Part shown: in pieces, positions 2,752 to 63,683 of the stretch
Numbering within the stretch: the first letter of the stretch is position 1
Layout: every line of letters starts with the position of its first letter
IMG/VR virus record: IMGVR_UViG_3300042484_000872
Location: 48,338-112,337 of that record
Length of the DNA stretch: 64,000 nucleotides
Reading direction: 5' to 3' (one strand)
Origin: a virus
Taxonomy: Duplodnaviria; Heunggongvirae; Uroviricota; Caudoviricetes
Translations under genes and position numbers: made by a program
Notes under the pieces: model-generated
Told to the model about the DNA's origin: nothing
Database searches by the model: none
Seen by the model: only the letters and a program-made list of their open reading frames with translations

Positions 2752-2757
2752 AATTAT

Positions 2758-28736: not shown

Positions 28737-28764
28737 AGAGAGCTGTAATGGCTCTCTTTTATAT
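28737..28764 (+). terminator. intrinsic terminator AGAGAGC-tgtaatg-GCTCTCT + TTTTAT
   Basis: 7-bp stem read directly; the track's ATG at 28748 lies inside the loop. Confidence 0.5.
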
Positions 28765-28771
28765 CAAAGCT

Positions 28772-31479: not shown

Positions 31480-31713
31480 TTTGATTAATTATTTGGTTTG
31501 TTACTCCCTGTAGATTATATTTGCAGGGATATTGTATAATCACTGGGGACTATAAACGCCACATAGCAGTTTAAATAGTCAATGTATGTGCTGCGTATCA
31601 TTGAACTTACCTATATTATGCATATTATGAGTTTAGAACTCACTAGAGTGATACAAAAAGAATAGGGAAGCTGAAAACTATATAGAGTAGGTACAAAATT
31701 AAACCAATGAACA

Positions 31714-31896
31714 ATGAAGTATCTAATAAGTATAGTCTTTACGTTCTTATCTGTATTAGCCTTTATGAAACTATTGTTTCTATTGAATAAGGGCAATACT
31801 GTTGCAAATGTTTTTGCTATAGTAGGTATATTCTTATTGGGATATATAATTGCAAGAACAAAGTTATTTACACAATTAAAATCAAAGAAAAAATGA
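31714..31896 (+). CDS. small membrane protein
   Basis: 60 aa, hydrophobic, overlaps the lipoprotein start by 4 nt. Confidence 0.3.
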   Translation: MKYLISIVFTFLSVLAFMKLLFLLNKGNTVANVFAIVGIFLLGYIIARTKLFTQLKSKKK

Positions 31897-32738
31897 AAAA
31901 AGTAGTATTATTAGGAGCATTAGTTGCTATGTTTGCAACATCATGTACAACAGCTGACTCAAGTGAAGTGGCATTAGTGGTAGATCAAATTGGAAATGAT
32001 AAGGGAATTCCAAACATTCAAATGGAATCAGGATTCATATTCTATTTCCCACCAACACAAGATGTATACACCTATCCAACATCTGTACAACATAAAGTGT
32101 GGAGTGCAGACAATCAAGAAGGATCAGAAACAGATGAGCACATTGATGTAACATCATCAGATGGAGCTACATTTGGTCTTGATGTATCTATAAACTTACA
32201 ATTACAAAGAGCTAAGGCATCAGAGTTGTTTATAAAATACAGAGTGGACATGGATGAGTTGATACATACAAGAGTAAGAACTATTGTTAGAAAAGAATTA
32301 TTAGATAATGCTGTTAACTTTGCATCAGATAGTCTTTTACAACATAGAAATATATATGAGGCCAATGTAACTAAGACATTAACATTATCATTAGAGAAAG
32401 AAGGATTCACATTGAATAACATTGCTGTATTAAAGATGGCATTACCATCATCATACAAGAAAGCTATTGAAAGAAAGATTGCTGTGTTACAAGAAACAGC
32501 AACTATCATCTCTCAGACTAAACAAGCTGAACAAACAGCATTGAAGAAAGTGGCATTAGCTAAGGGTAATTACGAAGCAGCACAATATGATGCTAAGACA
32601 AAAGAAATCTTATCACAACCTAAGCTTCTTGAATTATACAGAGCAGAAACAGAAAGAGTATGGGCAAATAAAGGCAGATCTCCATATGGTTCTAATAATG
32701 TATTTGGTTCTGCATCTGGAATTCTTTTAAATAGATAA
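31893..32738 (+). CDS. lipoprotein, SPFH/band-7-like
   Basis: Signal peptide with lipobox MKKVVLLGALVAMFATSC. The rest has prohibitin/HflC-like helical segments (weak, by eye). Confidence 0.5.
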   Translation: MKKVVLLGALVAMFATSCTTADSSEVALVVDQIGNDKGIPNIQMESGFIFYFPPTQDVYTYPTSVQHKVWSADNQEGSETDEHIDVTSSDGATFGLDVSINLQLQRAKASELFIKYRVDMDELIHTRVRTIVRKELLDNAVNFASDSLLQHRNIYEANVTKTLTLSLEKEGFTLNNIAVLKMALPSSYKKAIERKIAVLQETATIISQTKQAEQTALKKVALAKGNYEAAQYDAKTKEILSQPKLLELYRAETERVWANKGRSPYGSNNVFGSASGILLNR

Positions 32739-33048
32739 TTGCACAGTGGTCCTACATCCACACACATTAAACTTGTAGGATTGGTCTCTGATGTTAGGGA
32801 ACACTTGTGAGTTGCAATGATAAAACTCTCAAACAGGCTAAACATTGAACCAGATAGTGCATGAGGCCCATGCTACGAGTAACTATCAAAGATACTATCA
32901 GTAATGGTAGTTGGATGTTATGATGAATGGTGCTCTCTATGACAATTTGCACATAGGAGCACACATTTATCTAATTCAATTTTAAGATTATTAATATAAA
33001 TGCTTGGTACTAATCATTTTTATTTGTACATTTGTAAAAAATATTATT

Positions 33049-33534
33049 ATGTGGAAACAAATAGAAGACTATGATTATGAAATAAATCCTGAAGGAATAG
33101 TAATGAGAATTTCAACTAAAAGAATTAAAAAATCTTTTAAAAGACCTGATGGATACATTGGTATTCAATTGTACAAATCTAAAACAGAGATTAAAAACTT
33201 TCAGTTACATAGATTAATAGCAATTGCATTTATTAATAATCCTGAAAACAAAGACATTATTAACCATAAAGATTCAAATAGAGAAAACAATTCTTTAAAT
33301 AATCTTGAATGGGTAACAAAAAAAGAAAATGACAAACATGCTTATGAATTTGGTAATGCTTCAAACAAAGGTTCTAAAAATGGTTTTTCTGTATTAACAG
33401 AAGAACAAGTATTGAAAATAAGAAAAAAAAGAGCAGAAAATAAACTAACTTATCAAAAATTAGCAGAGTTGTATAATGTTTCTTACGGTTGTATTGCAGG
33501 TATAATACAAAGAACAAATTGGAAACATATTTAA
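33049..33534 (+). CDS. HNH homing endonuclease (HNH_3 / NUMOD4-type)
   Basis: MWKQIEDYDYEINPEGIV... start context, HRLIAIAF, INHKDSNRENNSLNNLEWVTKKEN. Start moved to Met-16 of the track ORF. Confidence 0.6.
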   Translation: MWKQIEDYDYEINPEGIVMRISTKRIKKSFKRPDGYIGIQLYKSKTEIKNFQLHRLIAIAFINNPENKDIINHKDSNRENNSLNNLEWVTKKENDKHAYEFGNASNKGSKNGFSVLTEEQVLKIRKKRAENKLTYQKLAELYNVSYGCIAGIIQRTNWKHI

Positions 33535-34169
33535 AATAATCTAAACCCTGACAGAAACTGTATAGTAATATATAGAATGGATATAGCTGTATGAGATATG
33601 CTATTATGTACCATTGGGAGTTCTCAGCAAGTAGTTAATCAGGTGTGAGTTCAGTAATCCTCCCAATTACACATCGAAAGGAGGTAATTAACTACGTGAC
33701 CCTACTCTTATATCTAACAATCGTAATTGATTTGCAGAAACAATAGTACATAAGAACAGACTATAAGAAAGAGGGTGCTAAACAATATTTAAAGCTCGAG
33801 GCTCAATCATTTGATTTGAGCACGCTACCTCGGACTATGATAAGTGTCCTCACATGAGGAATTTGGGCTCGACTGGAATTGACTGGTTATTATAGATTAT
33901 ACAATTCAGCCAGAGAGATAACTGTAAACTAAGGTGAATTATTTTAAATGGCAAAAACACAAGTCGTGTAGTGGCTCTAGGAGCAAACGCACAAATCGAA
34001 GCTAATATGAACAAAGTATTCTCATTATTAAATGAGGATGTAATCGTTGGTTTAGCAGCCTAAATTACCTCAAGATTTCTCTATTAGATTAAATAGAGTG
34101 GTGGGAACGTTAAGCCTAGCTTGACCCTAAATAAGCTGTATAAAATTGTATTTTTGAAGTAAGCAACAC

Positions 34170-34194
34170 GAGGGTTCGAATCCCTCCGAGTCCA
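34170..34194 (+). other. orphan tRNA 3' fragment (T-arm GAGGG-TTCGAAT-CCCTC + acceptor 3' strand CGAGTCC-A)
   Basis: Canonical T-arm read directly. No complementary 5' acceptor strand (GGACTCG) anywhere upstream. Confidence 0.35.
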
Positions 34195-34215
34195 CTGATT
34201 ACCAGTTAGTTAAAT

Positions 34216-34326
34216 GATTGAGTGGCGGAATTGGTAGACGTTATGTTATGTACAGATACTAAGCAGAAGTGAGATTGCTGTACTAAGCTCACATCCTGAA
34301 TACAGGTTCGAATCCTGTCTCAATCA
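34216..34326 (+). tRNA. tRNA-like gene, class-II-type D-arm, ~20 nt longer than a canonical tRNA; anticodon not assignable by eye
   Basis: 5' GATTGAG pairs perfectly with 3' CTCAATC. D-arm TGGCGGAATTGGTAGACG, T-arm ACAGG-TTCGAAT-CCTGT, discriminator A. The middle 60 nt contains a duplicated ACTAAGC and stems GTACAG/CTGTAC and GTGAG/CTCAC. Confidence 0.4.
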
Positions 34327-34547: not shown

Positions 34548-35330
34548 ATGAAAGAAAAGTTTATACCTTATACAAAGAAAAAGTATTCTATTACATCTGA
34601 TGGATTAGTTTATTCTAACTATAAAAATACTAACATTGGTGGAAAGTTTTATGAAAAGAAACTTATCAGCAAATATCTACAACAAAATTGTGCTGTTCTT
34701 AATTTACAATTTGGTAAATGGTCCAAAACCAATAAATCAACAACTGTTTTTATGAATACATTAATGAAAGATATATTTAAATTAAAAAAACCAGATACAT
34801 TTCATATGTATGATTTAAGACCTAAGAATGGTAATGTGTTCGATAGTTCATTAGATAATCTAGAATGGAGAATTAGATCCACTTCTGATTTCAATTTCTA
34901 TCCTCAACCATATTATGATAAAAAAGGCAATATAACATCTAAACGTTGCTCACATTGTGGAGAGATACATGATATTAATCGATATGTATTACAGAGGCCT
35001 AAGAGACCAGATGAGAATAATACATATAAGAACAAATGTAAATCTTGTAGACATGATCAAGAATGGAAACTTATAAATTCAGATGATAAAAAACTTGCTA
35101 GATATAAAGAACAACAAAAAAGATATACAAATTCTGAAAAAGGAAAAGCTTATCATAGAGAATATGGAATAGTTTGGTCTAAAAAAGATTATGATAGAAT
35201 AGGTGATCATTATATAAGTAATTGCTTAAAAGTAACAAGAAAAGAATTAACACCAGAATTACGAGAAATATTTAAAAAGAAAATAACCTTAAAACGAAAA
35301 TTAGAAAATCATGGCAACAAAGAAAATTAA
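34548..35330 (+). CDS. HNH-like endonuclease with Zn-finger (HNH_3-like LDNLEW motif)
   Basis: EKFIPYTKKKYSITSDGLVYSNY (NUMOD4-like), FHMYDLRPKNGN...LDNLEWRI, CSHCGE...CKSC zinc finger. TCCTTAATAAC 9 nt upstream. Confidence 0.45.
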   Translation: MKEKFIPYTKKKYSITSDGLVYSNYKNTNIGGKFYEKKLISKYLQQNCAVLNLQFGKWSKTNKSTTVFMNTLMKDIFKLKKPDTFHMYDLRPKNGNVFDSSLDNLEWRIRSTSDFNFYPQPYYDKKGNITSKRCSHCGEIHDINRYVLQRPKRPDENNTYKNKCKSCRHDQEWKLINSDDKKLARYKEQQKRYTNSEKGKAYHREYGIVWSKKDYDRIGDHYISNCLKVTRKELTPELREIFKKKITLKRKLENHGNKEN

Positions 35331-39812: not shown

Positions 39813-40010
39813 ATGAAATTTATAAATTATTTAGTTAGGTGGATATCGAATAATCTTGCTATGCCTTTTTGGGTAGTAGGACATATTCATCTATCTATTA
39901 ACATCTATGAAGACATAGCAGAAATTCTTGCATCATTTGGTATGAATATCATTGTAGGAATAGGATTTTGGTTAGATTGGAGAGATCATAAAAAAACAAC
40001 AAGACAATGA
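39813..40010 (+). CDS. small membrane protein
   Basis: 65 aa, hydrophobic. Confidence 0.35.
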   Translation: MKFINYLVRWISNNLAMPFWVVGHIHLSINIYEDIAEILASFGMNIIVGIGFWLDWRDHKKTTRQ

Positions 40011-41968
40011 AAGAAGAAGTAATAATATATGACATAGAAACCATGCAAGAACTATTCTTAGTTGTATGTATGGTGCCTGGTAAAGCTGGTAAGAGCTTTC
40101 AAGTGTCTAAATGGAAGAATCAATTAGATAAATTCGTTAGATATACAGAAGAACATACTGATGCTTATTGGGTAGGATATAATAATCTACGCTTTGACAG
40201 TCAAGTTGTTGAATGGATCTTGAGAAACTACGATAAGTGGCATGAGTTAAGCAATTTAGAAATATGTGCAAGAATAGCACAGAAAGCTGCTGATGTTATA
40301 CATGATGCTAACTATGATGTATTCCCTGAGTACAGAGAGCATGAATTAAGCCTCAAACAATTAGATCTGTTCAAGATAAGCCATTTCGACAATAAAAATC
40401 GAATGGTGAGTCTTAAAAGACTAGAGTTTGAGATGGATCTTGAGAATATAGAAGAAATGCCTATACATCATACTAAAACTAATATGACAAAAGAAGAAGT
40501 GGAGATGACCATTGACTATTGTTATAATGATGTAGATGCAACTTATGAATTCTACAAGATAACTATGGGTGATACAGATCATCCACTGTATAAAGGGAAT
40601 AATCAAATAGAGCTGAGACAAGATATTGAAGCTGAATTTGGTATCCCTTGTATGAACTATTCAGACTCTAAGATAGGGGATGAAATGATTAAGAAGTATT
40701 ATTGTTCAGAGAAAGGAATTACATACAGAGAACTTCCTAAGAAAGGATATTTCAGAAAGAGCATTGATGTAAAGAATTGCATTGCTAAGTATGTAACATT
40801 TGAAACTCCACAACTAAAAGACTTCTTAAAGAAGATTAATAAAATGCAGCTTGGTCTGCAAGATGATTTCAAAGAGCATATAGATTTCTATGGAAATGTG
40901 TATTCTTTTATGAAAGGTGGTCTTCACACAGAGAATGGTCCTAAGATCTTCGAAGCTGATGAAGACTATGAGATAATCGATTGGGATGTGTCTAGTTATT
41001 ATCCTGCCATCATTATCAACAATGGTAAGTTTCCTGCCCATTTAGGTAAGGAATTCCTTCGGGGATACAAACAGATGTTTGATAAAAGATTGGAGCTTAA
41101 ACCCTTTGCAAAGAAGGATAAGAAGATTAAAGGAATTGTTGGAGCACTTAAACTTGCAGTTAACTCTGTATACGGTAAGTCATCTGATATGCAGAATTGG
41201 ATATATGATAGGCAGTTAACTATGTTCACCACAATTACTGGTGAGCTTAGCTTGATGATGCTTATTGAAAAATATGAAACCAATGGCATACATGTGATCT
41301 CTGCTAATACGGATGGTGTAACCATCAAGATTAAGAAAGACATGATTCCTTTGATGCATGAAATCAATGCATGGTGGTGTGACATTACTCAATATGAGTT
41401 GGAGAGAACAGACTATTCCAAGATTATCTTTAGTACAGTGAATGACTATTTAGCAATTATGACCAATGGAGAGATTAAGAAAAAAGGTGATTTCCTTACT
41501 GATTTTGAATTGCACAAGAACAAGTCAGCTAGAATTGTTCCCATTGCTCTTGAGCAGTATTTTGTTTATGGTGTGCCTGTGGAGCATACAATTCGTGCTC
41601 ACACTAATCTTTATGACTTCTGTTTAAGACAGAAAGCTAGTAGGAGTTTTCACTATGAAGGAACTAACAGATCCACAGGTAAGAAGACAGTGTATGATAA
41701 ACTCATACGGTATTATGTATCCAACGAAGGAGATAAGATCTTTAAGATTAAGAATCCAGAGTGTCAAACCAGAGCTGCTGCAATCAGTCAAGTAGAAGCT
41801 GGTGAGTGGGTATGTAAAGTTTGTAATTTCTTACCAAAAGGTAGTAAAGTTGATAATGTCAATTATGATTACTACATTGAAAAAGCTAACAGATTAGTCT
41901 TAAAGATTAAAACTGAAGGCAGAAGAGTAAAAACGGTATTTATACCTAATCAATTAAATTTATTTTAA
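40007..41968 (+). CDS. family-B DNA polymerase, compact (653 aa), with 3'-5' exonuclease motifs
   Basis: Exo I IYDIET, Exo II YNNLRFDS, Exo III YCYNDVDATY. Motif A DVSSYYPAII, motif B KLAVNSVYGKSS. Motif C is ISANTDGV, i.e. NTD in place of the canonical DTD. Motifs A and B resemble phi29-type polymerases. Confidence 0.65.
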   Translation: MKEEVIIYDIETMQELFLVVCMVPGKAGKSFQVSKWKNQLDKFVRYTEEHTDAYWVGYNNLRFDSQVVEWILRNYDKWHELSNLEICARIAQKAADVIHDANYDVFPEYREHELSLKQLDLFKISHFDNKNRMVSLKRLEFEMDLENIEEMPIHHTKTNMTKEEVEMTIDYCYNDVDATYEFYKITMGDTDHPLYKGNNQIELRQDIEAEFGIPCMNYSDSKIGDEMIKKYYCSEKGITYRELPKKGYFRKSIDVKNCIAKYVTFETPQLKDFLKKINKMQLGLQDDFKEHIDFYGNVYSFMKGGLHTENGPKIFEADEDYEIIDWDVSSYYPAIIINNGKFPAHLGKEFLRGYKQMFDKRLELKPFAKKDKKIKGIVGALKLAVNSVYGKSSDMQNWIYDRQLTMFTTITGELSLMMLIEKYETNGIHVISANTDGVTIKIKKDMIPLMHEINAWWCDITQYELERTDYSKIIFSTVNDYLAIMTNGEIKKKGDFLTDFELHKNKSARIVPIALEQYFVYGVPVEHTIRAHTNLYDFCLRQKASRSFHYEGTNRSTGKKTVYDKLIRYYVSNEGDKIFKIKNPECQTRAAAISQVEAGEWVCKVCNFLPKGSKVDNVNYDYYIEKANRLVLKIKTEGRRVKTVFIPNQLNLF

Positions 41969-43423: not shown

Positions 43424-44488
43424 ATGAGTTTTGAACTATTAAATGCAGAAGTTAACAAAGGCCTAGGTGATTTCAATAGAGGTATACCAATGGGCTTTGA
43501 TAGGCTTACTAGATATGTAGGTATTCGTAAGGGAATGTATTATTTGATAGGTGGTAACACAGGTTCAGGTAAGACATCTTTTATTGATGATGCATTTGTT
43601 CTTAATCCTGTTGATTGGGCTATGTCCAAAGAAGGAATAGCTTCAGGTATAAAGGTGAAGGTGTGGTATAGGTCCATGGAGAGAAGTAGAACATACAAGA
43701 TGGCCAAATGGGTATCTCGTAAAATATTTCTAGACCAGGGTATAATTATTCCTGTAGGTAAATTACTTGGCTGGAATGAGAAGATGACTAAAGATGAGCA
43801 TGATCTATTTTTATATTATAAAGATTATGTAGAACAGCTCAGTGAGATAGTCACCATCATAGATGGTCCAGAGAATCCTGTAGGTATAGCAAAAGAACTT
43901 AAAGCTTATGCTGAAGAGAATGGTGAGATACAGCAATTGGACAAATGGAATAAAATATATGTTCCTAATGATCCAACACAAATTACCATGGTTGTAGTAG
44001 ATCACATTGGTCTATTAAAAACAACAACAGCTCAACCAACTAAAAAGGATGCTATTGATAAGATGTCTGATGAACTCAGATATGCTAGAGATTTCTATGG
44101 CTACAGTCCTGTAGTGGTAAGTCAGTTCAACAGAAGCATTTCTAATCCATCTAGGATAAAGAATGGTGATGTAGAACCTCAGTTAGAAGATTTTGCAGAT
44201 AGCTCAAGCACACAGAATGATGCTGATGTAGTTATGGCCTTATTTGATCCTATGAGATATAAAGTGGCAGATCCTAGTGGATATGACCTAGATAAATTAA
44301 AAGATCAATTTGGTGCTAAGTATTTCAGAAGTGTAAGACTAATCAAGAATTCATACGGTGAAGATGATGTGAGAATTGGACTAGCATTCCTAGGTGAACT
44401 TGGTTTATTCAAGGAGCTACCTAGAAAGAAAGATATCACAGAAGCAGATTATGAATCAATTACAAATAAGAGTTTCTTTCTTAGATAA
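43424..44488 (+). CDS. DnaB-family (SF4) replicative helicase, C-terminal RecA-like domain only
   Basis: H1 GGNTGSGKTSFIDDAFVLN, H2 VVVDHIGLL, H3 VVVSQFNRS, H4 QNDADVVMALFD. Lacks the DnaB N-terminal domain (354 aa). Confidence 0.65.
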   Translation: MSFELLNAEVNKGLGDFNRGIPMGFDRLTRYVGIRKGMYYLIGGNTGSGKTSFIDDAFVLNPVDWAMSKEGIASGIKVKVWYRSMERSRTYKMAKWVSRKIFLDQGIIIPVGKLLGWNEKMTKDEHDLFLYYKDYVEQLSEIVTIIDGPENPVGIAKELKAYAEENGEIQQLDKWNKIYVPNDPTQITMVVVDHIGLLKTTTAQPTKKDAIDKMSDELRYARDFYGYSPVVVSQFNRSISNPSRIKNGDVEPQLEDFADSSSTQNDADVVMALFDPMRYKVADPSGYDLDKLKDQFGAKYFRSVRLIKNSYGEDDVRIGLAFLGELGLFKELPRKKDITEADYESITNKSFFLR

Positions 44489-45340: not shown

Positions 45341-46153
45341 ATGTTATATCTTTGTCATATGAAAATAGATATAGCCCTTAGAAAAGTGACTGGTATATAT
45401 AAAATTACCAACACTATAAACAATAAATCATATGTAGGAAGTTCTGTTGATGTATATCAAAGAGGATGTATGTATAAGCACTTAATCAAAAGAAAGAAGT
45501 TACATAACAAACATTTACAGTCAGCTGTAGAGAAGTATGGATATGATAATTTTACATTTGAAGTCTTAGATAAGTGTGAAGAAGGTACATCTGTTTTTGA
45601 TTTGCATCAATTAGAACAATCTTACATAAACAAAATTAATCCTGAGTACAATAAAAGAACTGTTGTAGACACAAATCATTTACTTTCACATTCTCAAGAA
45701 ACTAAAGATAAAATATCTAATAGTTTGAAAGAATCTTTTAAGAATGGTAGTAAAGTTATCAATCGTATACAAGAACATAATATAAAAGTTAGTCTATTTG
45801 ATCTATCTGGAAATCATATTCAAGATTTTCCAGGATTAGCTCATTGTGCTGATTTTGTAGGAGTGAAGTATCAGAGCGTAACTTTTGCTATAAACAGTGA
45901 AAGAAGAAGAGTTAAGAATTACATAGTGCTACGTACAGAGGAATCTAATTTGGTAAAAGATTTTCTAAACATACCTAAATTAAATTATGCTAAAAAAGTT
46001 ACAGTTCTAGATATAATTACAAATGAGACATTACAATTTATTAATTGTAAACTGTGTGCAGAATTTATAAATTGTAAACCAACAACTGTAAAAAAATGTT
46101 ATGAGAATGGTAAAATTTGGAAAAACAAATACAAAATAATAAACTATGAGTAA
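45341..46153 (+). CDS. GIY-YIG homing endonuclease
   Basis: GIYKITNTINNKSYVGSS...R...KHLQSAVEKYG...FEVL...E. Alternative start at 45359. Inserted between the helicase fragment and the intact helicase gene. Confidence 0.65.
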   Translation: MLYLCHMKIDIALRKVTGIYKITNTINNKSYVGSSVDVYQRGCMYKHLIKRKKLHNKHLQSAVEKYGYDNFTFEVLDKCEEGTSVFDLHQLEQSYINKINPEYNKRTVVDTNHLLSHSQETKDKISNSLKESFKNGSKVINRIQEHNIKVSLFDLSGNHIQDFPGLAHCADFVGVKYQSVTFAINSERRRVKNYIVLRTEESNLVKDFLNIPKLNYAKKVTVLDIITNETLQFINCKLCAEFINCKPTTVKKCYENGKIWKNKYKIINYE

Positions 46154-47261
46154 AAGTTTAAGAGATATTAGACAAGCAGAATTTGCAAAAGCTTGGATAG
46201 ATAAAGGAAAGAAGGGTATAATTTACGCTTGTCCAAGGTTTGGCAAGATAAGAACTAGTATATTAATATTAAAACAACTTCCTAAAAAAAGTCTTAGTTA
46301 TACGAATGCAACAGTTTATCCTTCAGTATTGATTGCTTACCCAGATAATAAGATTAAAGAATCTTGGCAATCTGATTTTGATGATCTTGGATATGATGAT
46401 AGCAATGTCACATACACAACACATTTATCATTAAAGAAGTTAGTAGACAATGAGTATGATATTATTATTATAGATGAGATACATCTACTGAGTGAAGCTC
46501 AGATAGAAGCATGTCAAGATCTATTTAGTAACAATGCTTGTATACTAGGTCTCACTGGTACATTAGCCAGTGATACAGAAAGAACTCTCGAAGAGGAACT
46601 TGATTTACATGTTGTAGCTCACTATCCAATTGAAAAAGCGATTGAAGAAGGTGTTATTGTAGATTATGAGATACATGTTATTAAAGTGCCCCTTGACAAT
46701 CTTGTACACAATGATTATAAAGGAAAACTTAAAACAGAGAAGAAACACTATGATGGATTATCTTGGGTAATCAATAAACTTCAGAATAGTGGATCAGACA
46801 CTATGTTCATGCGTCTTGCAAGAATGAGACTTATTCAATCATCTTTAGCTAAAACTAATGCTACGAAAAAGCTATTAGCTAAACATAAAGATGAGAGAGT
46901 GTTAGTATTCTGTGGCACCACTGCTGTAGCAGATAGTCTTGGTATTCCTTCCTATCATAATAAGTCTAAAGAAAAGAGTATCTTTGAAGACTTTGCTGAA
47001 GGAGAAGGTAATCACCTAGCTGTTGTAAAGATTGGTAATACAGGAGTTACATATAAGCCTCTAGACAAAGTGATTATTAATTATTTCGATAGTAATGCAG
47101 AGAATCTCGCACAAAAAATAAATCGATGTATGGCTATGGAATATAACACTCCTGATAAGAAAGCCCACATATACATAGTGAGTTCTAATGAACCTGTAGA
47201 ATTGAAATGGTTACAGAAAGCTTTAGAATTCTTCGATAAAACCAAAATAAAATACATATAA
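46146..47261 (+). CDS. SF2 DExH-type helicase/ATPase
   Basis: Motif I-like ACPRFGKIRT, motif II IIIDEIH, motif III LTGTLASD. Confidence 0.5.
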   Translation: MSKSLRDIRQAEFAKAWIDKGKKGIIYACPRFGKIRTSILILKQLPKKSLSYTNATVYPSVLIAYPDNKIKESWQSDFDDLGYDDSNVTYTTHLSLKKLVDNEYDIIIIDEIHLLSEAQIEACQDLFSNNACILGLTGTLASDTERTLEEELDLHVVAHYPIEKAIEEGVIVDYEIHVIKVPLDNLVHNDYKGKLKTEKKHYDGLSWVINKLQNSGSDTMFMRLARMRLIQSSLAKTNATKKLLAKHKDERVLVFCGTTAVADSLGIPSYHNKSKEKSIFEDFAEGEGNHLAVVKIGNTGVTYKPLDKVIINYFDSNAENLAQKINRCMAMEYNTPDKKAHIYIVSSNEPVELKWLQKALEFFDKTKIKYI

Positions 47262-47325: not shown

Positions 47326-48000
47326 ATGGCAAGTAAATTAGTTGGGATTGTTGGTGCAACTGGTACTGGAAAGAGTACAGCAATTAAGCACCTAAATCCA
47401 GAAGAAACGTACATTATCAATGTTGCAAAGAAAGAGCTTCCTTTCAAGGGAAGTGAAAAGCTTTACAATGCTGAAAACAAAAATTACAAGGAAATTGAAG
47501 ATGCAAATGAAATATCTCGTCAGTTGAGAATTCTTTCAGACAAAGCTCCTCATATTAAGAACATCATCATTGAAGACTCTAATTACATTATGGGATTCAA
47601 TATGGTGGCTAAAGCTACAGAAGTAGGATTTACCAAGTTTAGTATTATGGCTAAAGACATGGTGGATCTATTTAGAACTGCTAGACAATTGAGAGAAGAC
47701 ATCACTGTATTCTATCTTACACATCCAGAAGAAGTGATGGATGGTCAAGATGTAATAGGATATAAAATCAAAACTGCAGGTAAGCTTATTGATAACCAAG
47801 TGTTATTAGAAGGATTGCTAACTGTATGTCTCTACACTCTTGTAGAAGAGAACAAAGATGGAACAGCTAATTATCAATTTGTAACTAATCGTTATAGAAA
47901 GTATCCAGCTAAGAGTCCTGATGGAATGTTCCAAGAATTAAAAATACCAAATAACCTGCAAATAGTAGCAGAAAGTTTAACAGATTATTATAACGCTTAA
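47326..48000 (+). CDS. P-loop NTPase
   Basis: Walker A GIVGATGTGKST near the N-terminus; 224 aa. Confidence 0.5.
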   Translation: MASKLVGIVGATGTGKSTAIKHLNPEETYIINVAKKELPFKGSEKLYNAENKNYKEIEDANEISRQLRILSDKAPHIKNIIIEDSNYIMGFNMVAKATEVGFTKFSIMAKDMVDLFRTARQLREDITVFYLTHPEEVMDGQDVIGYKIKTAGKLIDNQVLLEGLLTVCLYTLVEENKDGTANYQFVTNRYRKYPAKSPDGMFQELKIPNNLQIVAESLTDYYNA

Positions 48001-48013
48001 TTAAATAGAAATT

Positions 48014-48886
48014 ATGAGTAGTATCGGAGGAAAGAAAAGAGAGAACACAGGAAGTGGTGATTCAGTAAAGAAAGTAGGATTGTTCGAAGCAAACATTATT
48101 GCTATCAATCCAACAATTGAAGAGTATAAAGACAAGCTTGGTATTGATCTTAAAGAAGACAGCAAAGCTGCTGAGTATTTAGGTGAGACTAAAGATGGGA
48201 ACAGTTATGTTCGTTTAGATTTTTGGTTACAGAAAGTTAATACTACAGATAATTATAAAGTTAGCTTTTTCTTAGAAGATAAAGAACGTGAGAACAAAGA
48301 TGGAACTAAGAAACAATATATCAATTCTATTGGTATGTGTTCTTGGGCAGGAGATGAAAATGATCTAGCTGAATGGTTCACAAAAGGAAGAGATTTCAGA
48401 GTGGCGTATACAGGAGAAGAAGATCTTTACAACTTCATGAGAACATGGTTAGCTGATCTTGATTATCGTGATGCAGAAACTGTTCTACAATTAGAATGGA
48501 AGAAGTTGATGAGAGGTAATATAAAAGACATTAAAGACCAAATTGGTGGAGAATGGGCTAAATCTGTTATTGCTCTTGCTACTGTTATTGTTAAAGAAAG
48601 AGATGGAGATTCTAAAGAGTATCAAGGTATCTATAATAAAGCCTTCTTAGGTGGATATGCATTGAAACAATTTAGACTTGTTGATTATGGAGACAGAAGA
48701 GTACAAGAGGGTCTTAAAAACAAGAAACCAAAAGATTTGAAAGCACACGAGAAATTCGTAGTGAATGTTATAGGTGAATATGGTTGTAAAGACTATTATA
48801 CACTAAAGGACCTACAGGATTATAATGCAGATGACAATTTAGTTGCTTCTGATGCATATATTTCTGAAGATGGTGACGATTATTAA
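48014..48886 (+). CDS. hypothetical protein with acidic C-terminal tail (SSB-like?)
   Basis: Ends SEDGDDY, i.e. acidic tail with a terminal aromatic as in phage ssDNA-binding proteins; sits between ATPase and primase genes. Weak. Confidence 0.3.
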   Translation: MSSIGGKKRENTGSGDSVKKVGLFEANIIAINPTIEEYKDKLGIDLKEDSKAAEYLGETKDGNSYVRLDFWLQKVNTTDNYKVSFFLEDKERENKDGTKKQYINSIGMCSWAGDENDLAEWFTKGRDFRVAYTGEEDLYNFMRTWLADLDYRDAETVLQLEWKKLMRGNIKDIKDQIGGEWAKSVIALATVIVKERDGDSKEYQGIYNKAFLGGYALKQFRLVDYGDRRVQEGLKNKKPKDLKAHEKFVVNVIGEYGCKDYYTLKDLQDYNADDNLVASDAYISEDGDDY

Positions 48887-48908: not shown

Positions 48909-48940
48909 CCTCTATCAGAAATGATAGAGGTTTTTTATTT
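48909..48940 (+). terminator. intrinsic terminator CCTCTATCA-gaaa-TGATAGAGG + TTTTTTATTTT
   Basis: 9-bp perfect stem read directly; the track ATG 48921 lies in the loop. Confidence 0.5.
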
Positions 48941-48947
48941 TAAAGCT

Positions 48948-49952
48948 ATGAGTATACAAGGGAAAAAGAAAATAAATTTAACACCTGATAGCATACTGGA
49001 AAAGATATCTGAATATGATATCTATAAGATGTATATGCCACATCAGAACTGGAAGATTAATGTTGTTACTTATTCAGCCTTCAGAGATGAAAAACATCCA
49101 TCATTCATTATAGGATATAGAGGAGGAGCATTGAGATTTTATGATTTTACAGACTCTAGTAAAAAAGGTGGCTGTTTTGATTTTGTAATGATGCTATTCA
49201 ATATATCATTGCGTGAAGCATTATTGATGCTTGATAGAGATTTTGATTTAGGGATTGTTAATGCATCCTCTACAAGGAATTATGAGAGGATTGTTTCTGA
49301 TTATGCACAACCAACAGCTACATCTAAACGTGAATTCTTTATTCAAGTGAAGACAAGAAAGTTCACACATGAAGAACTAGCATATTGGAATATGTATTAT
49401 CAAGACATAGATGATCTTAGAGCTAATAATGTGTATTCAATAGACACTGTATATCTAAATAAAAAGAAGTTTCCTATATTGGATTCAGAATTGAGATTTG
49501 GTTATCTATATGAAGGACATTGGAAGATTTATAGACCATTTGCAGACAAGAAGAATAAGTGGATGCCAAATAATGTGCCTATTACTATGATGGATGGATT
49601 AGAAGACATCAAAGATTGTGATGTAGCATTCATTAATAAGAGTAAGAAGGATTACATGGTGATGAAAAAGATTTACCCATGTTGCTGTGCAGTGCAGAAT
49701 GAAGGTATGGGATGTTTCTCAGAAGAGAATGTAGAATACCTAAAAGATAATTCTGATAGACAAATCTTAAGCTTCGATAGTGATGAGACTGGTGTAAAGA
49801 ATTCTCAATTGATAACTGATAAGTTTGATTTTGAGTATTGTAATGTACCAAAGCTCTATCTAGGAGAAGGGATAAAAGATTGGGCTGATCTTGCCAGAAT
49901 ACATGGATTAAAAGTTATAGAAGAATATTTAACACAAAGAGAAATTATATGA
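48948..49952 (+). CDS. DNA primase (TOPRIM domain)
   Basis: EG motif (CAVQNEGMG) and DxD motif (SFDSDETG) of TOPRIM. Start moved to the ATG at 48948 (MSIQGKKK). Confidence 0.55.
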   Translation: MSIQGKKKINLTPDSILEKISEYDIYKMYMPHQNWKINVVTYSAFRDEKHPSFIIGYRGGALRFYDFTDSSKKGGCFDFVMMLFNISLREALLMLDRDFDLGIVNASSTRNYERIVSDYAQPTATSKREFFIQVKTRKFTHEELAYWNMYYQDIDDLRANNVYSIDTVYLNKKKFPILDSELRFGYLYEGHWKIYRPFADKKNKWMPNNVPITMMDGLEDIKDCDVAFINKSKKDYMVMKKIYPCCCAVQNEGMGCFSEENVEYLKDNSDRQILSFDSDETGVKNSQLITDKFDFEYCNVPKLYLGEGIKDWADLARIHGLKVIEEYLTQREII

Positions 49953-50346: not shown

Positions 50347-50550
50347 ATGACATTAAAAGAAAGATTTAAACAATGGTTAGATACTGATCCAAGAGAACAA
50401 ATCAGAGAAGTTCCATTAGAAATTATAGCAGAAGACTTTGCTATTGGGTTTGCAGATTGGATTAGAGTGTGTAAACTCAAAGAGAGAAGTTATGATTTTG
50501 ATAACATAGAAGAATTATTAAAAACTTATAAAGAAGAAAAAGGGCTATGA
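50347..50550 (+). CDS. hypothetical protein (tandem paralog 1)
   Basis: MTLKERF...AEDFAIGFADWI...ELLKTYKEEKGL. Confidence 0.45.
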   Translation: MTLKERFKQWLDTDPREQIREVPLEIIAEDFAIGFADWIRVCKLKERSYDFDNIEELLKTYKEEKGL

Positions 50551-50726
50551 CACTAAAAGACAAGTTTATAGGAGCAGATAGATATTCAATTAGAAAAACA
50601 ACTCTTGCTGATAGATGCGAACAAATAGCAGATGAATTTGCTATTGGTTTTGCAGAGTGGATAACCCAAGCAGAATTGCCTTTAGAAGAACTATTAAAAA
50701 CCTATAAAAAAGAGAAAGGATTATGA
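50547..50726 (+). CDS. hypothetical protein (tandem paralog 2, 59 aa)
   Basis: Hand-translated MTLKDKF...ADEFAIGFAEWI...ELLKTYKKEKGL; ATGA overlap with paralog 1. Confidence 0.4.
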   Translation: MTLKDKFIGADRYSIRKTTLADRCEQIADEFAIGFAEWITQAELPLEELLKTYKKEKGL

Positions 50727-50880: not shown

Positions 50881-51600
50881 ATGAATTTTCAGAATTTTAA
50901 ACATCAAATGCATCCAAGTTGGTATTCCAAACTTAGACCATTTATAGAGAGTGAAGAGTGTGATAAGATATATGCATATCTAAAATCAGAGAGTAAGAGA
51001 GGCAAAAGAGTTGCTCCTCTCTCTATGCATGTTTGGAGATGTTTCTTTGAGACACCATTAGACAATTTAAAAGTGGTGATGGTGGGCCTATGTCCATATC
51101 ATACACTTAGAGATGATGCTCCTGTAGCAGATGGATTACTTATGGGATGTTCTATTACAGGTAAATTACAACCTACATTAGAACAATTCTATACAGGTCT
51201 AGAGAAAGAATTCTATGATGGATTAAACTTAAACTATGTACCAGATCCAGAAGTACACTATCTAGCAAACCAAGGCGTTCTTATGTTAAACGCAGCTCTT
51301 ACAACAGAGATTAATAAAGCAGGAAGTCACCTAGAGATATGGGAACCATTTATTAAATATCTGTTTGAAGAAGTGATTAATCATTTAGGAGTTCCTATTA
51401 TATTCCTAGGTAAAGATGCAGCTAAGTATAAAAAATACACAGGCATATTTGCACATGTGTTTGAGCTTAGTCATCCAGCATCTGCAGCTTATAAGGGATC
51501 AGAGTGGGATACAGAAGGAGTGTTCAGTAAAGTAGATATATTATTAGAAGAAAACAATGGGTTCACAGTGCAATGGTTGCCTGTAGATATGCCTTTTTGA
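50881..51600 (+). CDS. uracil-DNA glycosylase family-1 homolog with catalytic Asp replaced by Cys
   Basis: LKVVMVGLCPYH aligns with UDG motif A VKVVILGQDPYH (Q->L, D->C). YLANQGVLMLNAALT aligns with GVLLLNTVLT. HPASAAY aligns with HPSPLSA. C-terminus QWLPVDMPF aligns with IDWMPVLP. Confidence 0.6.
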   Translation: MNFQNFKHQMHPSWYSKLRPFIESEECDKIYAYLKSESKRGKRVAPLSMHVWRCFFETPLDNLKVVMVGLCPYHTLRDDAPVADGLLMGCSITGKLQPTLEQFYTGLEKEFYDGLNLNYVPDPEVHYLANQGVLMLNAALTTEINKAGSHLEIWEPFIKYLFEEVINHLGVPIIFLGKDAAKYKKYTGIFAHVFELSHPASAAYKGSEWDTEGVFSKVDILLEENNGFTVQWLPVDMPF

Positions 51601-52218: not shown

Positions 52219-54516
52219 ATGATATTAGAAAAACAGAAAGAAGCAAATGTCCTAGAAGAAGGACAATCACAAGAATCAATTGGAATGTCCCTAGACTTAG
52301 ATTCTGCTCAGATATTGATGCAGATGTTAAGTAAGAATTTATATTCTGATGATATAGGCTCTGCTATCAGAGAATGTGCAAGTAATGCATTAGATAGCCA
52401 TAGAAGAGCTGGAGTGGACACTCCTATAATTGTTTCATTTAAAGCATCTGCAGCTAACAACTATGAGTTTTGTGTAGAAGATTTTGGTATAGGCTTAGAT
52501 GCTGATGATGTAAGAAACATTATTAGTAAATATGGTAAATCTACCAAGAGAAATTCTACAACAGAATTAGGTATGATGGGTCTTGGTTTCAAGGCTCCTC
52601 TAGCATATTCTAGTAGTTTCTATTTTGTATGTAGAAAAGATGGAATGGAACGCAAGTATATGATGTATGAAGGGGAAGATGCTAATACGATTGATCTTTT
52701 ATATGAAAAAGAAACAACAGAAGCTAATGGTGTAAAAATCATTATTCCTGTTAAGTATGCTGATAGATGGCAGTTTCACAAAAAGATTAAAGAACAACTA
52801 TGTTATTTCGAAAGTGTATACTTTGATGTACCAGAAGATTCTAAGATTACTAATGATTTTGTAATCTCTAGACATCCACACTTTCAATTCTCTGAAATGT
52901 CTACAGATCAAAACTTACACATCTGTTTAGACAATGTGTATTATCCTTTAGATTTTGAGAAGCTTGGTATTGGTAGAATTCAATTTCCTATAGGTCTTAG
53001 ATTTTCATTGAGTGATGGAATTTATCCTACACCAAATAGAGAATCTTTAAGATATACACAAGAGGCTAAGCAGATCATTATGGATAAACTTGGTCAAGTG
53101 GGAGATTATTTTGTTACTAAGTATAACGAAGCTATCACTGAGGGAAGTGACATTAAATCTATGGTGAATCACCTTGAGAAGAATGGACATTTTGTTGAAA
53201 TGGGTAATGGTACTAAATCTAAGATTGATGAGTTCATTAAATTCTCCACTGTAAAACCTATTGTTCCAGAATTAGAAGGAGTAGAACTATTGAACTTTCC
53301 TTCTTTGTACAAAACCTATAAGCAAAACATTCTTGTAGATCCATTTCCTGTTAGATATTCATTGAAATATAAAAGAATGTCTGATGCAGATAAAGGTTAT
53401 GTATGGGGATACAACTTAGAGAGTGTGTGTAATGGAGAATGTAATGTTTGGGTGTACACTGATAGAATTCCTCAAATCAAGAAAGATTTCCTAAGAGCTA
53501 CATGTAAAGAAACTCAAAGTAATTTTCTTGTTAAGAGAGGTACACCTATGAAATTAGGAATTCCTGCTAAGTTTGATCTTAAAACTTATTATCATTTATT
53601 GAAACTTGATAGATTTCCAAAAGAACAATGGAGAGATGCTATTAAAGAGTATCAACACATTATGTCTATGATTGAAGAAAACTTCACAGACCTTGATGAG
53701 TTAGAAGTTCCTCAAGATTTCATTGATAGCAAGAAGAAAGCAAAAATTAGTAAAGCTGGCTTAGCTAGTACTAAAAGACTGAAGCTGCAGGGAGAAATAG
53801 TTTGCAAGAAAGGTGTTGACTTGATGAGATGGAATGATGGAAGAAAGTGTAAATTTGATTCTCAAATCTATAAGTTAGAAGATCTTCATAAGGGTAAAGG
53901 ATTAAAGGTGTATACTCATCATGAGGACTTCTTGAAACTTGATCCTTTATATGGAATGATGGGAAAACAAAAGATGGAAGTGATTACATTCTCTAGTAGA
54001 GAACTAAAGATTGTAGAACAACTAAACATACACAATTTAATATCTTACGAGAAGTTTATGGAAGGTAAAACAGCACCATTCAAAAGAATGATTACATCAA
54101 TATTGATTCATGAGATGATAAGTACTTATAGAAGTACATTTGATCATGCAGATGCTTTGAAATATGTATCTACTGACTTATTTAATAAATTAGATAGATT
54201 AGCTACATACAGAAAAGACAATTATGTAGAAACAAATGATACATTAAGAAAAGCTATGTTAGAAGTGGCAACAGAACATAAATTGTTTGATCCACAAATC
54301 TATACAGAGTATTTAGAGATGTTAGACATATTTGAGAAGCTTACATTCTTGAATCCTGTATGTGCAAGATTAGGTTACACTCGTGAAGATGATCCAATGA
54401 TCCCAGTAATGACTGATTTGTTCAAATATTACAAGCATAGAGTAGATTTAAAGCACTATAATATCAAAATCAATGATGAAGTACTTACAGAAGAAACAAT
54501 AGATCAATTAACATAA
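52219..54516 (+). CDS. GHKL-family ATPase (Bergerat fold; Hsp90/MORC/MutL-like N-terminus), 765 aa
   Basis: N-box IRECASNALDS (ExxxNAxD), G1 VEDFGIGLD, G2 GMMGLGFKA. No TOPRIM motif seen downstream. Confidence 0.5.
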   Translation: MILEKQKEANVLEEGQSQESIGMSLDLDSAQILMQMLSKNLYSDDIGSAIRECASNALDSHRRAGVDTPIIVSFKASAANNYEFCVEDFGIGLDADDVRNIISKYGKSTKRNSTTELGMMGLGFKAPLAYSSSFYFVCRKDGMERKYMMYEGEDANTIDLLYEKETTEANGVKIIIPVKYADRWQFHKKIKEQLCYFESVYFDVPEDSKITNDFVISRHPHFQFSEMSTDQNLHICLDNVYYPLDFEKLGIGRIQFPIGLRFSLSDGIYPTPNRESLRYTQEAKQIIMDKLGQVGDYFVTKYNEAITEGSDIKSMVNHLEKNGHFVEMGNGTKSKIDEFIKFSTVKPIVPELEGVELLNFPSLYKTYKQNILVDPFPVRYSLKYKRMSDADKGYVWGYNLESVCNGECNVWVYTDRIPQIKKDFLRATCKETQSNFLVKRGTPMKLGIPAKFDLKTYYHLLKLDRFPKEQWRDAIKEYQHIMSMIEENFTDLDELEVPQDFIDSKKKAKISKAGLASTKRLKLQGEIVCKKGVDLMRWNDGRKCKFDSQIYKLEDLHKGKGLKVYTHHEDFLKLDPLYGMMGKQKMEVITFSSRELKIVEQLNIHNLISYEKFMEGKTAPFKRMITSILIHEMISTYRSTFDHADALKYVSTDLFNKLDRLATYRKDNYVETNDTLRKAMLEVATEHKLFDPQIYTEYLEMLDIFEKLTFLNPVCARLGYTREDDPMIPVMTDLFKYYKHRVDLKHYNIKINDEVLTEETIDQLT

Positions 54517-54574: not shown

Positions 54575-56122
54575 ATGGAACACAAATTTTTAAGTCTTGA
54601 CTGGTTCAAGCAAACAGCAGAATCTGCAATTACTAAAGTGGTGGCTAACAAGTTAGAGAACTTGATGGAACAAGAAATTCCTGTAGAACAACAATGTCAT
54701 GCTAAACATGAGAAACCATATTTTGCTATTAAATTGGTAAATGACACACTTACAGTGGTGTTAACAGATGGAACTATTATCAGTAAGCCTGGTGCAACTG
54801 AGAATGATTATCATGCTGTTCAAGCAGCAAGAGATATATATGAAATACATGCTATTGTAAGTTCTCAAGAAGTGAAACAAGATGTAGCAGATATGAAAGC
54901 TGAAGCAGCAAGAATACAAGCTCTTCAACAAGGAGTAGAACTACTTGGAAAACTTCCTGATTTTGTTGTAAAAGGTAATTCAGTTTATCTTTCAGATACA
55001 ACTAGAAGTATGCCTCAATTGCTTGTGGAGAAATTCATTGAGATAGTTGATAGAGTGGGAGAAGAACCACAAACAGATGGTAGATCTTTTCATGAAGCTC
55101 TTAACGAGAATGATGATTATTTAGCTCATAAGAACTTCTTCATGTGGTGTTGTTTAAATCCAAGAGCTGAAGTGGCTAATGAACTATATAGATTCTTAAC
55201 AGAGAATAGTTTCAAAATCACTAAACAAGGATTCTTTGTAGCTCTTAGAAATGTTGTAACATTGCATGGATCTCCAGAACTGGTTCACTTCGTAAGTAAT
55301 GCTTACAACAAGGTGAAAGCTGTATGGAAGAAGAATCCAGATAACTACACTATTTTCTTAGAAAATGGAGAATACAAACTTGTACATGATGATAAGTTGT
55401 TTGAAGATATAATTGTTGAGTCTACAATATGTCCAGATTGTGTTGGTGAGGGTGGATACTATGAATCTTCAGAACACATGCATTATGATGATAATTGGTT
55501 TGATTGTGATACTTGTGGTGGATCAGGAGAAGTGGAAGAGTATGAATGGGAAGAAACAGTTCCTGTAGACCATGGTCAAAAGATTGGTGGATTAACAGCA
55601 TTGTATTTAGATCTTCCTAATAGAGAAGAGAATAGATTCACTGATAACTGGAGTAAAACATTTGATATCCGTATAGGACAAGTGGTAAGTATGCCTAAAG
55701 AAGAATGTAACTGGAGTACACAAGATTGTGCTACAGCAGGTCTTCACTTTGCTGGTTACACAGCTCCTTATGTTCTTTGTGGTGATACTACAGTTATGAC
55801 TCTTCATAATCCTATGAAGGTTGTAGGTATTGGTGCAGTGAAAGGTAGATGTTGGGAATATCTTCCATTCATGTTGACTACTGTTGCTGAAGCAGATCAA
55901 ATTATGAATGATAGAAGCTTTGACTTCTTACAATTAGATGAGCAATATGCTATCCGTGAATTAGAATCTCTTGCAGAGAAAGCTAAAGAAGGATTTGCAG
56001 CTGAGTCTAGAAAGTATGAATTCAACATGCCATCTATATCAGCTCATGAAATTAATGCTATTGTTGGTAGTCTTAGTGAAATGAAAGCCAAAATAACTAA
56101 TCGTGTGATTACGATTAATTAA
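54575..56122 (+). CDS. hypothetical protein with internal Cys cluster (CPDCVGEG...CDTCGGSG)
   Basis: 515-aa ORF immediately downstream of the GHKL ATPase. Confidence 0.55.
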   Translation: MEHKFLSLDWFKQTAESAITKVVANKLENLMEQEIPVEQQCHAKHEKPYFAIKLVNDTLTVVLTDGTIISKPGATENDYHAVQAARDIYEIHAIVSSQEVKQDVADMKAEAARIQALQQGVELLGKLPDFVVKGNSVYLSDTTRSMPQLLVEKFIEIVDRVGEEPQTDGRSFHEALNENDDYLAHKNFFMWCCLNPRAEVANELYRFLTENSFKITKQGFFVALRNVVTLHGSPELVHFVSNAYNKVKAVWKKNPDNYTIFLENGEYKLVHDDKLFEDIIVESTICPDCVGEGGYYESSEHMHYDDNWFDCDTCGGSGEVEEYEWEETVPVDHGQKIGGLTALYLDLPNREENRFTDNWSKTFDIRIGQVVSMPKEECNWSTQDCATAGLHFAGYTAPYVLCGDTTVMTLHNPMKVVGIGAVKGRCWEYLPFMLTTVAEADQIMNDRSFDFLQLDEQYAIRELESLAEKAKEGFAAESRKYEFNMPSISAHEINAIVGSLSEMKAKITNRVITIN

Positions 56123-56183
56123 TTTAATTATAGTTTTGTCCCAAATTTATTATATCTTTGGGACGAAACTTAATTATAAACAT

Positions 56184-56573
56184 ATGGCAAAGAGAGTGTT
56201 AGTCCCAAAGACAAGATGTGCAGGCACCATGAGTGAAGCTGCATTTTGGAGCTTCATAAGAAGTGCTTTGAGACAAAAGAGCAGATGGTGGAAACCTATA
56301 TCAGTATGTAAATTAAATGCACGTAGAGATTACAAAGGAACTAGTAAAAGACAAAAATACGAATACCAATGTAAGAAGTGCAAAACTTGGACTACTGAAA
56401 AGAATATTAATGTAGATCATATTATACCAGCAGGTTCATTGAATTGTGCACAAGACTTACCACTATTTGTGGAGAGACTATTCTGTGAACAAGATAACTT
56501 ACAGGTATTATGTACTACATGTCATGATAAGAAAACGCTTAAAGAGAAACAAGCTAAAAAGAAAACACTATGA
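56184..56573 (+). CDS. HNH endonuclease
   Basis: CKKCKTW...NVDHIIP...LQVLCTTCHDKKT. The track start at 56136 is a TTG inside a hairpin; the ATG at 56184 (MAKRVL...) is preferred. Confidence 0.6.
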   Translation: MAKRVLVPKTRCAGTMSEAAFWSFIRSALRQKSRWWKPISVCKLNARRDYKGTSKRQKYEYQCKKCKTWTTEKNINVDHIIPAGSLNCAQDLPLFVERLFCEQDNLQVLCTTCHDKKTLKEKQAKKKTL

Positions 56574-63374: not shown

Positions 63375-63683
63375 ATGAAAAGTTACAATGAATTAGAAGC
63401 TCTTGTTATAGCATGGGCAACACAGAAAGGTATATTTGAAAATGGTACCTTTAGAGCACAAGCAATTAAAACACTTGAAGAATCAAATGAACTTTATGAA
63501 GCTATTGTTAATGATGATAGAGAAGAAGTAATTGATGCTCTGGGTGATATACTAGTTACAATCATTATACAAGCAGAGATGCAAGGATTAAGCTTAACAG
63601 AGTGTTTAGAAAGTGCTTACAATGTAATCTCTAAACGTACAGGTAAGATGGTAGATGGTCAATTTGTAAAAGATGCAAAATAA
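63375..63683 (+). CDS. MazG-like nucleotide pyrophosphohydrolase
   Basis: LEESNELYEA...EEVIDALGDILVTIII matches the MazG EExxE...E..GD motif pattern. Confidence 0.5.
   Translation: MKSYNELEALVIAWATQKGIFENGTFRAQAIKTLEESNELYEAIVNDDREEVIDALGDILVTIIIQAEMQGLSLTECLESAYNVISKRTGKMVDGQFVKDAK

Follow-up and report, generated by a model that had tools for sequence, protein, structure and literature searches.

A family-1 uracil-DNA glycosylase homologue without the catalytic aspartate in the replication module of an environmental crAss-like phage

Uracil-DNA glycosylases (UDGs) of eukaryotic viruses are known to have replisome roles that are independent of catalysis, with their active sites kept. For vaccinia, a catalysis-independent role of the UDG in replication, exerted through A20, has been described (PMC1936997), and in gamma-herpesviruses the UNG is a structural element of the replisome (PMC5934625). 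Cryo-electron microscopy has located UDG domains ahead of phage PolA and of Mpox PolB, and many phage UDGs encoded in trans are predicted to associate with the polymerase (bioRxiv 10.1101/2025.03.26.645540). Here we analyse a UDG homologue encoded at 50881-51600 (plus strand, ATG start, 239 amino acids (aa)) in a stretch of 64,000 nucleotides, hereafter the window, which spans positions 48,338 to 112,337 of the phage record IMGVR_UViG_3300042484_000872. The product, referred to as the UDG-like protein, is a family-1 homologue that lacks the catalytic Asp. We see an even chance that it is a catalysis-impaired protein of the UDG fold whose selected role is associated with replication, largely independent of catalysis and based on binding of DNA or uracil.

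A preliminary description made from the sequence alone had claimed homology to UDGs along the full length, including motif A, GVLMLN, HPASAA and the C-terminal WLPV, and this proved correct in every particular when PDB sequences were searched with phmmer and the structure was predicted. UDGs account for 59/59 of the PDB matches, the best being Coxiella 3tr7 (E 1.7e-13, residues 25-232), followed by near full-length alignments to the UNGs of Leishmania, S. aureus, Bacillus, Deinococcus, E. coli and human (E 1e-9 to 1e-12, those of E. coli and human at 1e-9 to 1e-10), and all significant matches belong to family 1. The Pfam profile PF03167, the check proposed at that stage, scored 29.6 bits against a gathering cutoff of 24.3, and the sole PHROG match is phrog_12143 (3.8e-28), which carries no annotation. 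An AlphaFold2 (AF2) model from a diverse alignment reached a mean predicted local distance difference test score (pLDDT) of 97.3 and was used in place of an earlier one from close homologues only, which was discarded (pLDDT 61). Its best Foldseek matches are UNG structures, with template modelling (TM) scores of 0.75-0.87 (~0.8 for human and bacterial UNG) and E ~1e-15. On our favoured reading, the UDG-like protein is a descendant of a phage family-1 uracil-DNA glycosylase. The Joint Genome Institute (JGI) annotation names it as such an enzyme; in NCBIfam it scores below the cutoffs of the Ung equivalog models, reaching 99.8 bits against 162 for the best of them, NF003592, and 81.1 against 185.75 for TIGR00628. 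It fails these cutoffs, lacks the Asp of motif A and should not carry a functional-Ung annotation.

Compared with family-1 Ung/UNG from E. coli, human and Coxiella (3tr7), the UDG-like protein combines full-length homology and the same predicted fold (TM ~0.8) with a set of shared landmarks, namely the PY of motif A, the His at +3 from the catalytic position, the Asn of GVLxLN, the motif-B His and a W-x-P near the C-terminus. It departs from them in having Leu-Cys for Gln-Asp, Ala for the Leu191 wedge and Met for Phe77, in scoring below the equivalog cutoffs, and in being encoded in a phage replication module.

Motif A, the water-activating loop, reads G69-L-C-P-Y-H74 (51085-51102, plus strand; GGC CTA TGT CCA TAT CAT), with the TGT of codon 71 at 51091-51093. 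The PDB alignments place 'vglcpyh' under 'GQDPYH', 'qgvlmlnaalt' under 'QGVLLLNAALT' and 'hpasa' under 'HPSPL', and a profile of 43 close relatives gives the same register of GLCPYH under GQDPYH. With MAFFT, Q63, D64, Y66 and H67 of E. coli Ung correspond to L70, C71, Y73 and H74, and F77, N123, H187 and L191 to M88, N137, H198 and A202. Pairwise, clade-profile and multiple alignments therefore all return the replacement of the catalytic Asp by Cys and of the preceding Gln by Leu that had been read from the sequence; a conserved Asp at the catalytic position of a profile alignment, named beforehand as the observation that would contradict it, was looked for and is absent. The uracil-specificity residues Tyr73 and Asn137 are both present, the latter (AAC, 51289-51291, plus strand, in GVLMLN) being the equivalent of Asn123, through which E. 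coli Ung recognises uracil. Asn137 is shared by 57/57 close relatives and is kept in 48/52 cluster representatives of the Cys/Ser/Ala type. Motif B (H198-P-A-S-A-A-Y204; 51472-51492, plus strand) keeps the equivalent of His187, and Thr99 occupies the position of the DNA-contacting Ser88. Given that Tyr73, Asn137, His198 and Thr99 are retained, the earlier proposal that canonical catalysis is lost while base flipping and DNA binding persist is a reasonable prediction. The Leu191 wedge position is Ala202, and Ala is typical of this column in the whole phage clade including Asp-type members, so that another residue may act as the wedge; at the stacking-Phe position (Phe77, here Met88), Met, Phe and Leu alternate across the clade. 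Two candidate compensations were rejected. Asp84 of an ADG motif found throughout the phage clade is just as conserved in proteins that have the catalytic Asp as in those that lack it, making it a feature of the clade rather than a compensating acidic residue, and a variant-specific Cys71-Cys90 pair is not supported, Cys90 being present in all types.

The substitution recurs in independent assemblies. The identical protein is encoded on several independent contigs, among them a 112,245-bp JGI contig, and relatives of 62-100% identity are encoded at 80 IMG/VR loci. In the 48 loci that matched the first motif pattern, residue 71 is Cys in 42 (TGT 35, TGC 7) and Ala in the other six (GCA/GCC/GCT), and the more distant remainder of the 80 carry GMCPYH, GLCPYH, GMSPYH or GTSPYH. 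The gene is under purifying selection, with a median ratio of nonsynonymous to synonymous substitution rates (dN/dS) of 0.15 against the window gene (pairwise NG86, 49 pairs, median dS ~1). The use of both TGT and TGC across independent assemblies together with this low dN/dS means that the change from Asp to Cys stems neither from a sequencing error nor from decay of the gene. In the close clade, position 71 toggles between Cys and Ala and position 70 between Leu and Met, whereas G69, P72, Y73, H74, C90, N137, H150, H198, P199 and Y204 are invariant. Ala replaces Cys at position 71 in 25 of 120 otherwise near-identical relatives, the two residues alternating among relatives of 71-100% identity, and Cys, Ser, Ala, Glu and other residues are found there across the family, so the weight that the preliminary description had put on Cys itself finds little support.

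At a larger scale, an exhaustive HMMER search over cluster representatives at 50% identity returned 4913 proteins at E<=1e-3, 136 of them at E<=1e-30, and in one search the phage clade comprised 1263 cluster representatives at 90% identity. We aligned the best 150 of the 4913 representatives with the UDG-like protein, crAss001 gp74 and phi14:2 g042. Among these best 150, the column of the catalytic Asp holds D in 62, C in 25, S in 22, E in 16, G in 6, A in 5, N in 4 and K in 3, with a few each of P, T, V and L. Asp and non-Asp proteins are mutual nearest neighbours in 21 cases (37-51% identity), and a Fitch count gives ~17 switches between the two states on a rough neighbour-joining tree, a number that is indicative only as the tree is weakly resolved. 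This interleaving and the switches point to repeated loss, and on the evidence of the alignment many members of this phage UDG clade have lost the Asp, on recurrent occasions.

Three grades can be distinguished within the alignment. Asp-type proteins, typically GQDPYP, keep both Asn and His in 60/61 full-length sequences. Proteins of the Cys/Ser/Ala type, typically G[LM][CS]PYH, keep Tyr in 50/52 sequences and, counting only sequences without a gap at the site, Asn in 48/50 and His in 41/44. The third grade collects the mixed rest, which has lost His as well and in some cases also Asn. Apart from 71 itself, the most discriminating position is +3, where His occurs in 34/52 of the Cys/Ser/Ala type against 4/62 of the Asp type and Pro in 42/62 of the latter; Thr at +4 also co-varies with Cys/Ser. 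The closest annotated phage relatives of the UDG-like protein, at 28-33% identity, are the UDGs of crAss-like phages, crAss001 gp74 and Cellulophaga phi14:2 g042, and all three belong to one phage-specific clade that is marked by ADG and HPA(x)A and encoded in genomes of Crassvirales type. The crAss001 protein gp74 keeps GQDPYP and the His and looks catalytically competent, and g042 carries GKEPYR and EDPIQA, i.e. Asp is replaced by Glu and the His is lost; neither has the G[LM][CSA]PYH motif of the subtype to which the window protein belongs. The literature searched, whose coverage of journals was incomplete, yielded no account of phage family-1 UDGs that lack the Asp or of this subtype, and nothing specific on inactive phage or crAss UDGs. 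A GIY-YIG open reading frame (ORF) is fused or run on to the UDG-like gene of one relative (P0152).

The gene content around the locus was surveyed in the window and its flanks, ~84 kb of a ~112-kb genome. Structural markers specific to crAss phages, i.e. CrAss_Ring_1, CrAss_Ring_2 and a 1950-aa crAss_MUZ muzzle protein, lie at 1780-3965 (minus strand; the Pfam match to CrAss_Ring_2 at 3237-3965) and past the left edge (L093), and by these matches the environmental phage is placed among or near the Crassvirales. Its terminase is closest to those of Leptolyngbya phage Lbo-JY46, Cellulophaga phi4:1 and crAss-like phages, the guanine-cytosine content of the window is ~0.32, and megablast of the region against a phage genome collection gave no match, the lineage being known only from metagenomes. 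The replication module lies on the plus strand. It begins with a DNA polymerase (40007-41968, phrog_1252) that is family-B-like by the annotation of its phage homologues and has no Pfam or PDB sequence match, and continues with a DnaB-like replicative helicase (43424-44488), a ParB-like gene, a GIY-YIG homing endonuclease, a SNF2/ResIII-type helicase (46146-47261), a Sak4-like (AAA_24) single-stranded DNA annealing protein (47326-48000), and p290 (48014-48886), a conserved 290-aa protein always found between Sak4 and primase and without family matches in PHROG, Pfam and NCBIfam scans. A DnaG-type primase (48921-49952), whose place upstream of the UDG-like gene is conserved, is followed by small ORFs, the UDG-like gene itself and its conserved downstream neighbours RIIA (52219-54516) and RIIB (54575-56122). 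Related contigs have in common the order polymerase, DnaB, SNF2, Sak4, p290, primase, UDG-like, RIIA, RIIB, and the UDG-like gene has a fixed place among the replication genes of this environmental crAss-like lineage. No second UDG was found in the ~84 kb.

In a syntenic contig (L089), the orthologue found at the corresponding place, with primase before it and RIIA after it, takes the loss further. This protein, P0125 (240 aa, 47% identical to the UDG-like protein), has the motifs GPPPSYV, LLLH and LPDIELY and has hence lost Asp, Asn and His altogether, but its ORF is intact and the other conserved blocks of the family are kept. It follows that retention of the gene, in that phage at least, does not need a base-binding pocket. 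On the same contig, a gene with Pfam DNA_pol_A (L089 1-136) occupies the position of the PolB-like polymerase of the window, with differing C-termini, and to judge from these matches the two loci represent an in-situ PolA/PolB swap of the kind described in crAss-like phages (PMC7886860). The RIIA gene of L089 is split by a LAGLIDADG ORF.

By analogy of mechanism, the UDG-like protein most resembles the replisome-associated viral UDGs, though it is not closely related to them. Like poxvirus D4/E4 and herpesvirus UNG, it would be a viral protein of the UDG fold that serves viral replication alongside a polymerase of B-family type, in a catalysis-independent role, and as with D4/E4 its gene lies beside replication genes and a polymerase with family-B-annotated homologues. 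Pox D4 has a motif B of HPA type without the Leu wedge, and the UDG-like protein shares this arrangement. There are also differences: pox and herpes UDGs retain the catalytic Asp and are active enzymes, no bridging partner resembling the A20/A22 of D4/E4 was identified here, and D4/E4 matches are marginal (E 0.015-0.11 over residues 131-233 only; phmmer, PDB), cellular UNGs being far closer.

Membership in the syntenic core, repeated Asp loss and the pocket-less orthologue are the reasons for which we favour a catalysis-independent role in replication. With its water-activating loop lacking both Asp and Gln, the UDG-like protein would be a very poor uracil excision enzyme at best, while DNA binding and accommodation of a flipped uracil are most likely kept through Tyr73, Asn137, His198 and the loops that contact the DNA backbone. 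It would then probably act, by analogy with the viral systems, as an accessory or architectural subunit or as a uracil reader together with the phage polymerase, primase and helicase machinery. We infer a loss or strong reduction of glycosylase activity, binding of DNA or uracil, and physical association with the replisome. Several points weigh against this reading. The pocket is kept in Cys/Ser/Ala forms almost as in Asp forms, and a pure scaffold would need no pocket. The pairing of Cys or Ser with His at +3 could, from the alignment, mean an alternative catalytic arrangement. UDG families 2, 3 and 5 are active without an Asp at this position. Family 4 also works without it (PMC5387724). Moreover, that genes lie side by side among the replication genes of a phage is weak evidence that their products associate physically with the polymerase, and the gene-content survey covered ~84 kb of the ~112-kb genome.

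Much of this would suit an active glycosylase that works without the Asp, through Cys/Ser71 with His74 or through leaving-group activation by His198 alone, on uracil or a related base and with altered specificity or slow turnover, which we regard as a possible though doubtful explanation. The non-acidic motif A of the Asp-less families (GINPG in family 2 MUG/TDG, GMNPG in family 3 SMUG1, GLAPA in family 5 UDGb) and the comparable position of UdgX make Asp-independent chemistry conceivable in the UDG-like protein, although it is not homologous to these at the family level and has no UdgX-type insertion or covalent His loop. In its favour, too, Tyr73, Asn137, His198 and the DNA-contacting Ser/Thr are conserved in the Cys/Ser/Ala type about as well as in the Asp type, Cys/Ser co-varies with the residues at +3 and +4, the non-Asp state persists over deep divergence, down to ~35-40% identity, and the water-coordinating residue has been relocated within the superfamily (PMC5387724). 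A further hint at base-level DNA chemistry comes from P0136, a metagenomic relative of 385 aa in which a NADAR domain (PF08719, 1.3e-14) appears to be fused to the N-terminal side of a UDG-like domain of GLSPYH type, a single case that may yet stem from gene calling. NADAR enzymes act on ADP-ribosylated substrates. Set against this are the Ala that stands for Cys in otherwise near-identical relatives, the Gly, Pro, Lys and Val that also occur at position 71, and P0125, a syntenic orthologue without Asn and His as well. In addition, replacing the Asp of family-1 enzymes by Asn lowers their activity by 3-4 orders of magnitude.

Improbable in our view is a protector or decoy, in which the protein would shield phage DNA containing deoxyuridine (dU) from host Ung without cutting it, or titrate a UNG-recognising factor or inhibitor of the host. 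A uracil pocket kept without the catalytic Asp would fit, and dU incorporation is conceivable since neither dUTPase nor thymidylate synthase genes were found in the ~84 kb. A thymidylate synthase does occur at the locus of an Asp-type relative with GQDPYH (P0165): its contig, L095, has a similar helicase/AAA_24 module with ThiF and a 365-aa gene of the thymidylate synthase family downstream, and the contrast with the window phage may mean that an intact UDG site correlates with thymidylate metabolism. Stoichiometric shielding of scattered uracils would be inefficient, however, compared with inhibitors of the Ugi/p56 type; a MazG-type nucleoside triphosphate pyrophosphohydrolase (63375-63683, plus strand), the only nucleotide-pool enzyme recognised in the ~84 kb, could clean the deoxynucleoside triphosphate (dNTP) pool; P0125 occupies the same slot and cannot bind uracil; and no observation points to uracil in the phage DNA. 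The same survey bears on the suggestion in the preliminary description of a link to modified phage DNA, which found no backing, as genes for dNTP or base modification were likewise not recognised in the ~84 kb (Pfam, PHROG and precomputed Pfam); besides MazG, the annotation yielded only thioredoxin, PhoH and, past the right edge, a GT2 glycosyltransferase. A PADLOC search at E<=1 gave no match for the UDG-like protein, in a database version (PADLOC-DB 2.0.0, 2023) that may predate Brig1-like defence glycosylases.

A covalent trap, also raised in the preliminary description, would have Cys71 attack C1' after base release and crosslink protein to DNA as UdgX does. A nucleophilic Cys at the site of the oxocarbenium ion, beside His74, invites this idea, but among relatives near and far Ala and Ser freely take the place of this Cys, making a trap specific to Cys unlikely, and the protein is a family-1 homologue for which UdgX or family 4 appears in 0/59 PDB sequence matches and 0 of the top 50 fold matches; we consider it very improbable. 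Least credible is a decaying, functionless remnant or an artefactual Cys, which the missing catalytic residue and the scores below the Ung equivalog cutoffs might suggest and which is effectively refuted by the codon survey with its synonymous TGT/TGC and by the dN/dS, alongside an intact 239-aa ORF in dozens of independent assemblies and an AF2 pLDDT of 97.

Other features of the window, all on the plus strand, deserve mention. Just upstream of the UDG-like gene, two tandem paralogous ORFs of 67 and 59 aa (50347-50550 and 50547-50726) without family match have in common MTLK..F, ..(D/E)FAIGFA(D/E)WI.. and a C-terminal ELLKTYK(E/K)EKGL. Homing endonucleases are unusually many for a replication or early region, with one GIY-YIG/NUMOD1 and three HNH genes (45341-46153, 33004-33534, 34548-35330 and 56136-56573). 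A transfer-messenger RNA (tmRNA; 33865-34197) was detected by ARAGORN (tag ANAQIEANMNKVFSLLNEDVIVGLAA) and by Rfam RF00023 (49.9 bits against a gathering score of 47), and directly 3' of it lies a tRNA-like match of 111 nucleotides (34216-34326), possibly a tRNA with an insert or intron. At 28748-31479 and 31893-32738, a MoxR-type AAA+ ATPase (bpMoxR/AAA_5), an unannotated 463-aa protein and a Band_7/SPFH-like protein follow one another, which is an unusual early set for a phage, and an Rfam DUF805b cis-regulatory RNA motif is found at 31661-31693 (36.7 bits against a gathering score of 35.6).

What is new here in relation to the viral systems is a large phage clade that repeatedly drops the catalytic Asp under purifying selection, which provides natural genetic evidence for a second selectable function of the fold in phage replication. 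Tentatively, this might be taken in one of two directions. Either G[LM][CS]PYH marks an undescribed, widespread subtype of family 1 in which a Cys/Ser-His74 pair stands in for Asp as the element that activates water or stabilises the oxocarbenium ion, so that new chemistry or specificity would reside in a glycosylase coupled to the phage replisome or in a uracil sensor that does not cut, or the clade represents repeated natural conversion of a repair enzyme into a pseudoenzyme subunit of the replisome, mirroring poxviruses and herpesviruses. If the Cys/Ser-His variants are active, they would constitute a new catalytic solution in the UDG superfamily and possibly be useful as enzymes or as uracil-binding reagents. 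For the phages themselves, the label 'uracil-DNA glycosylase' in crAss-like and related genomes may not imply uracil repair.

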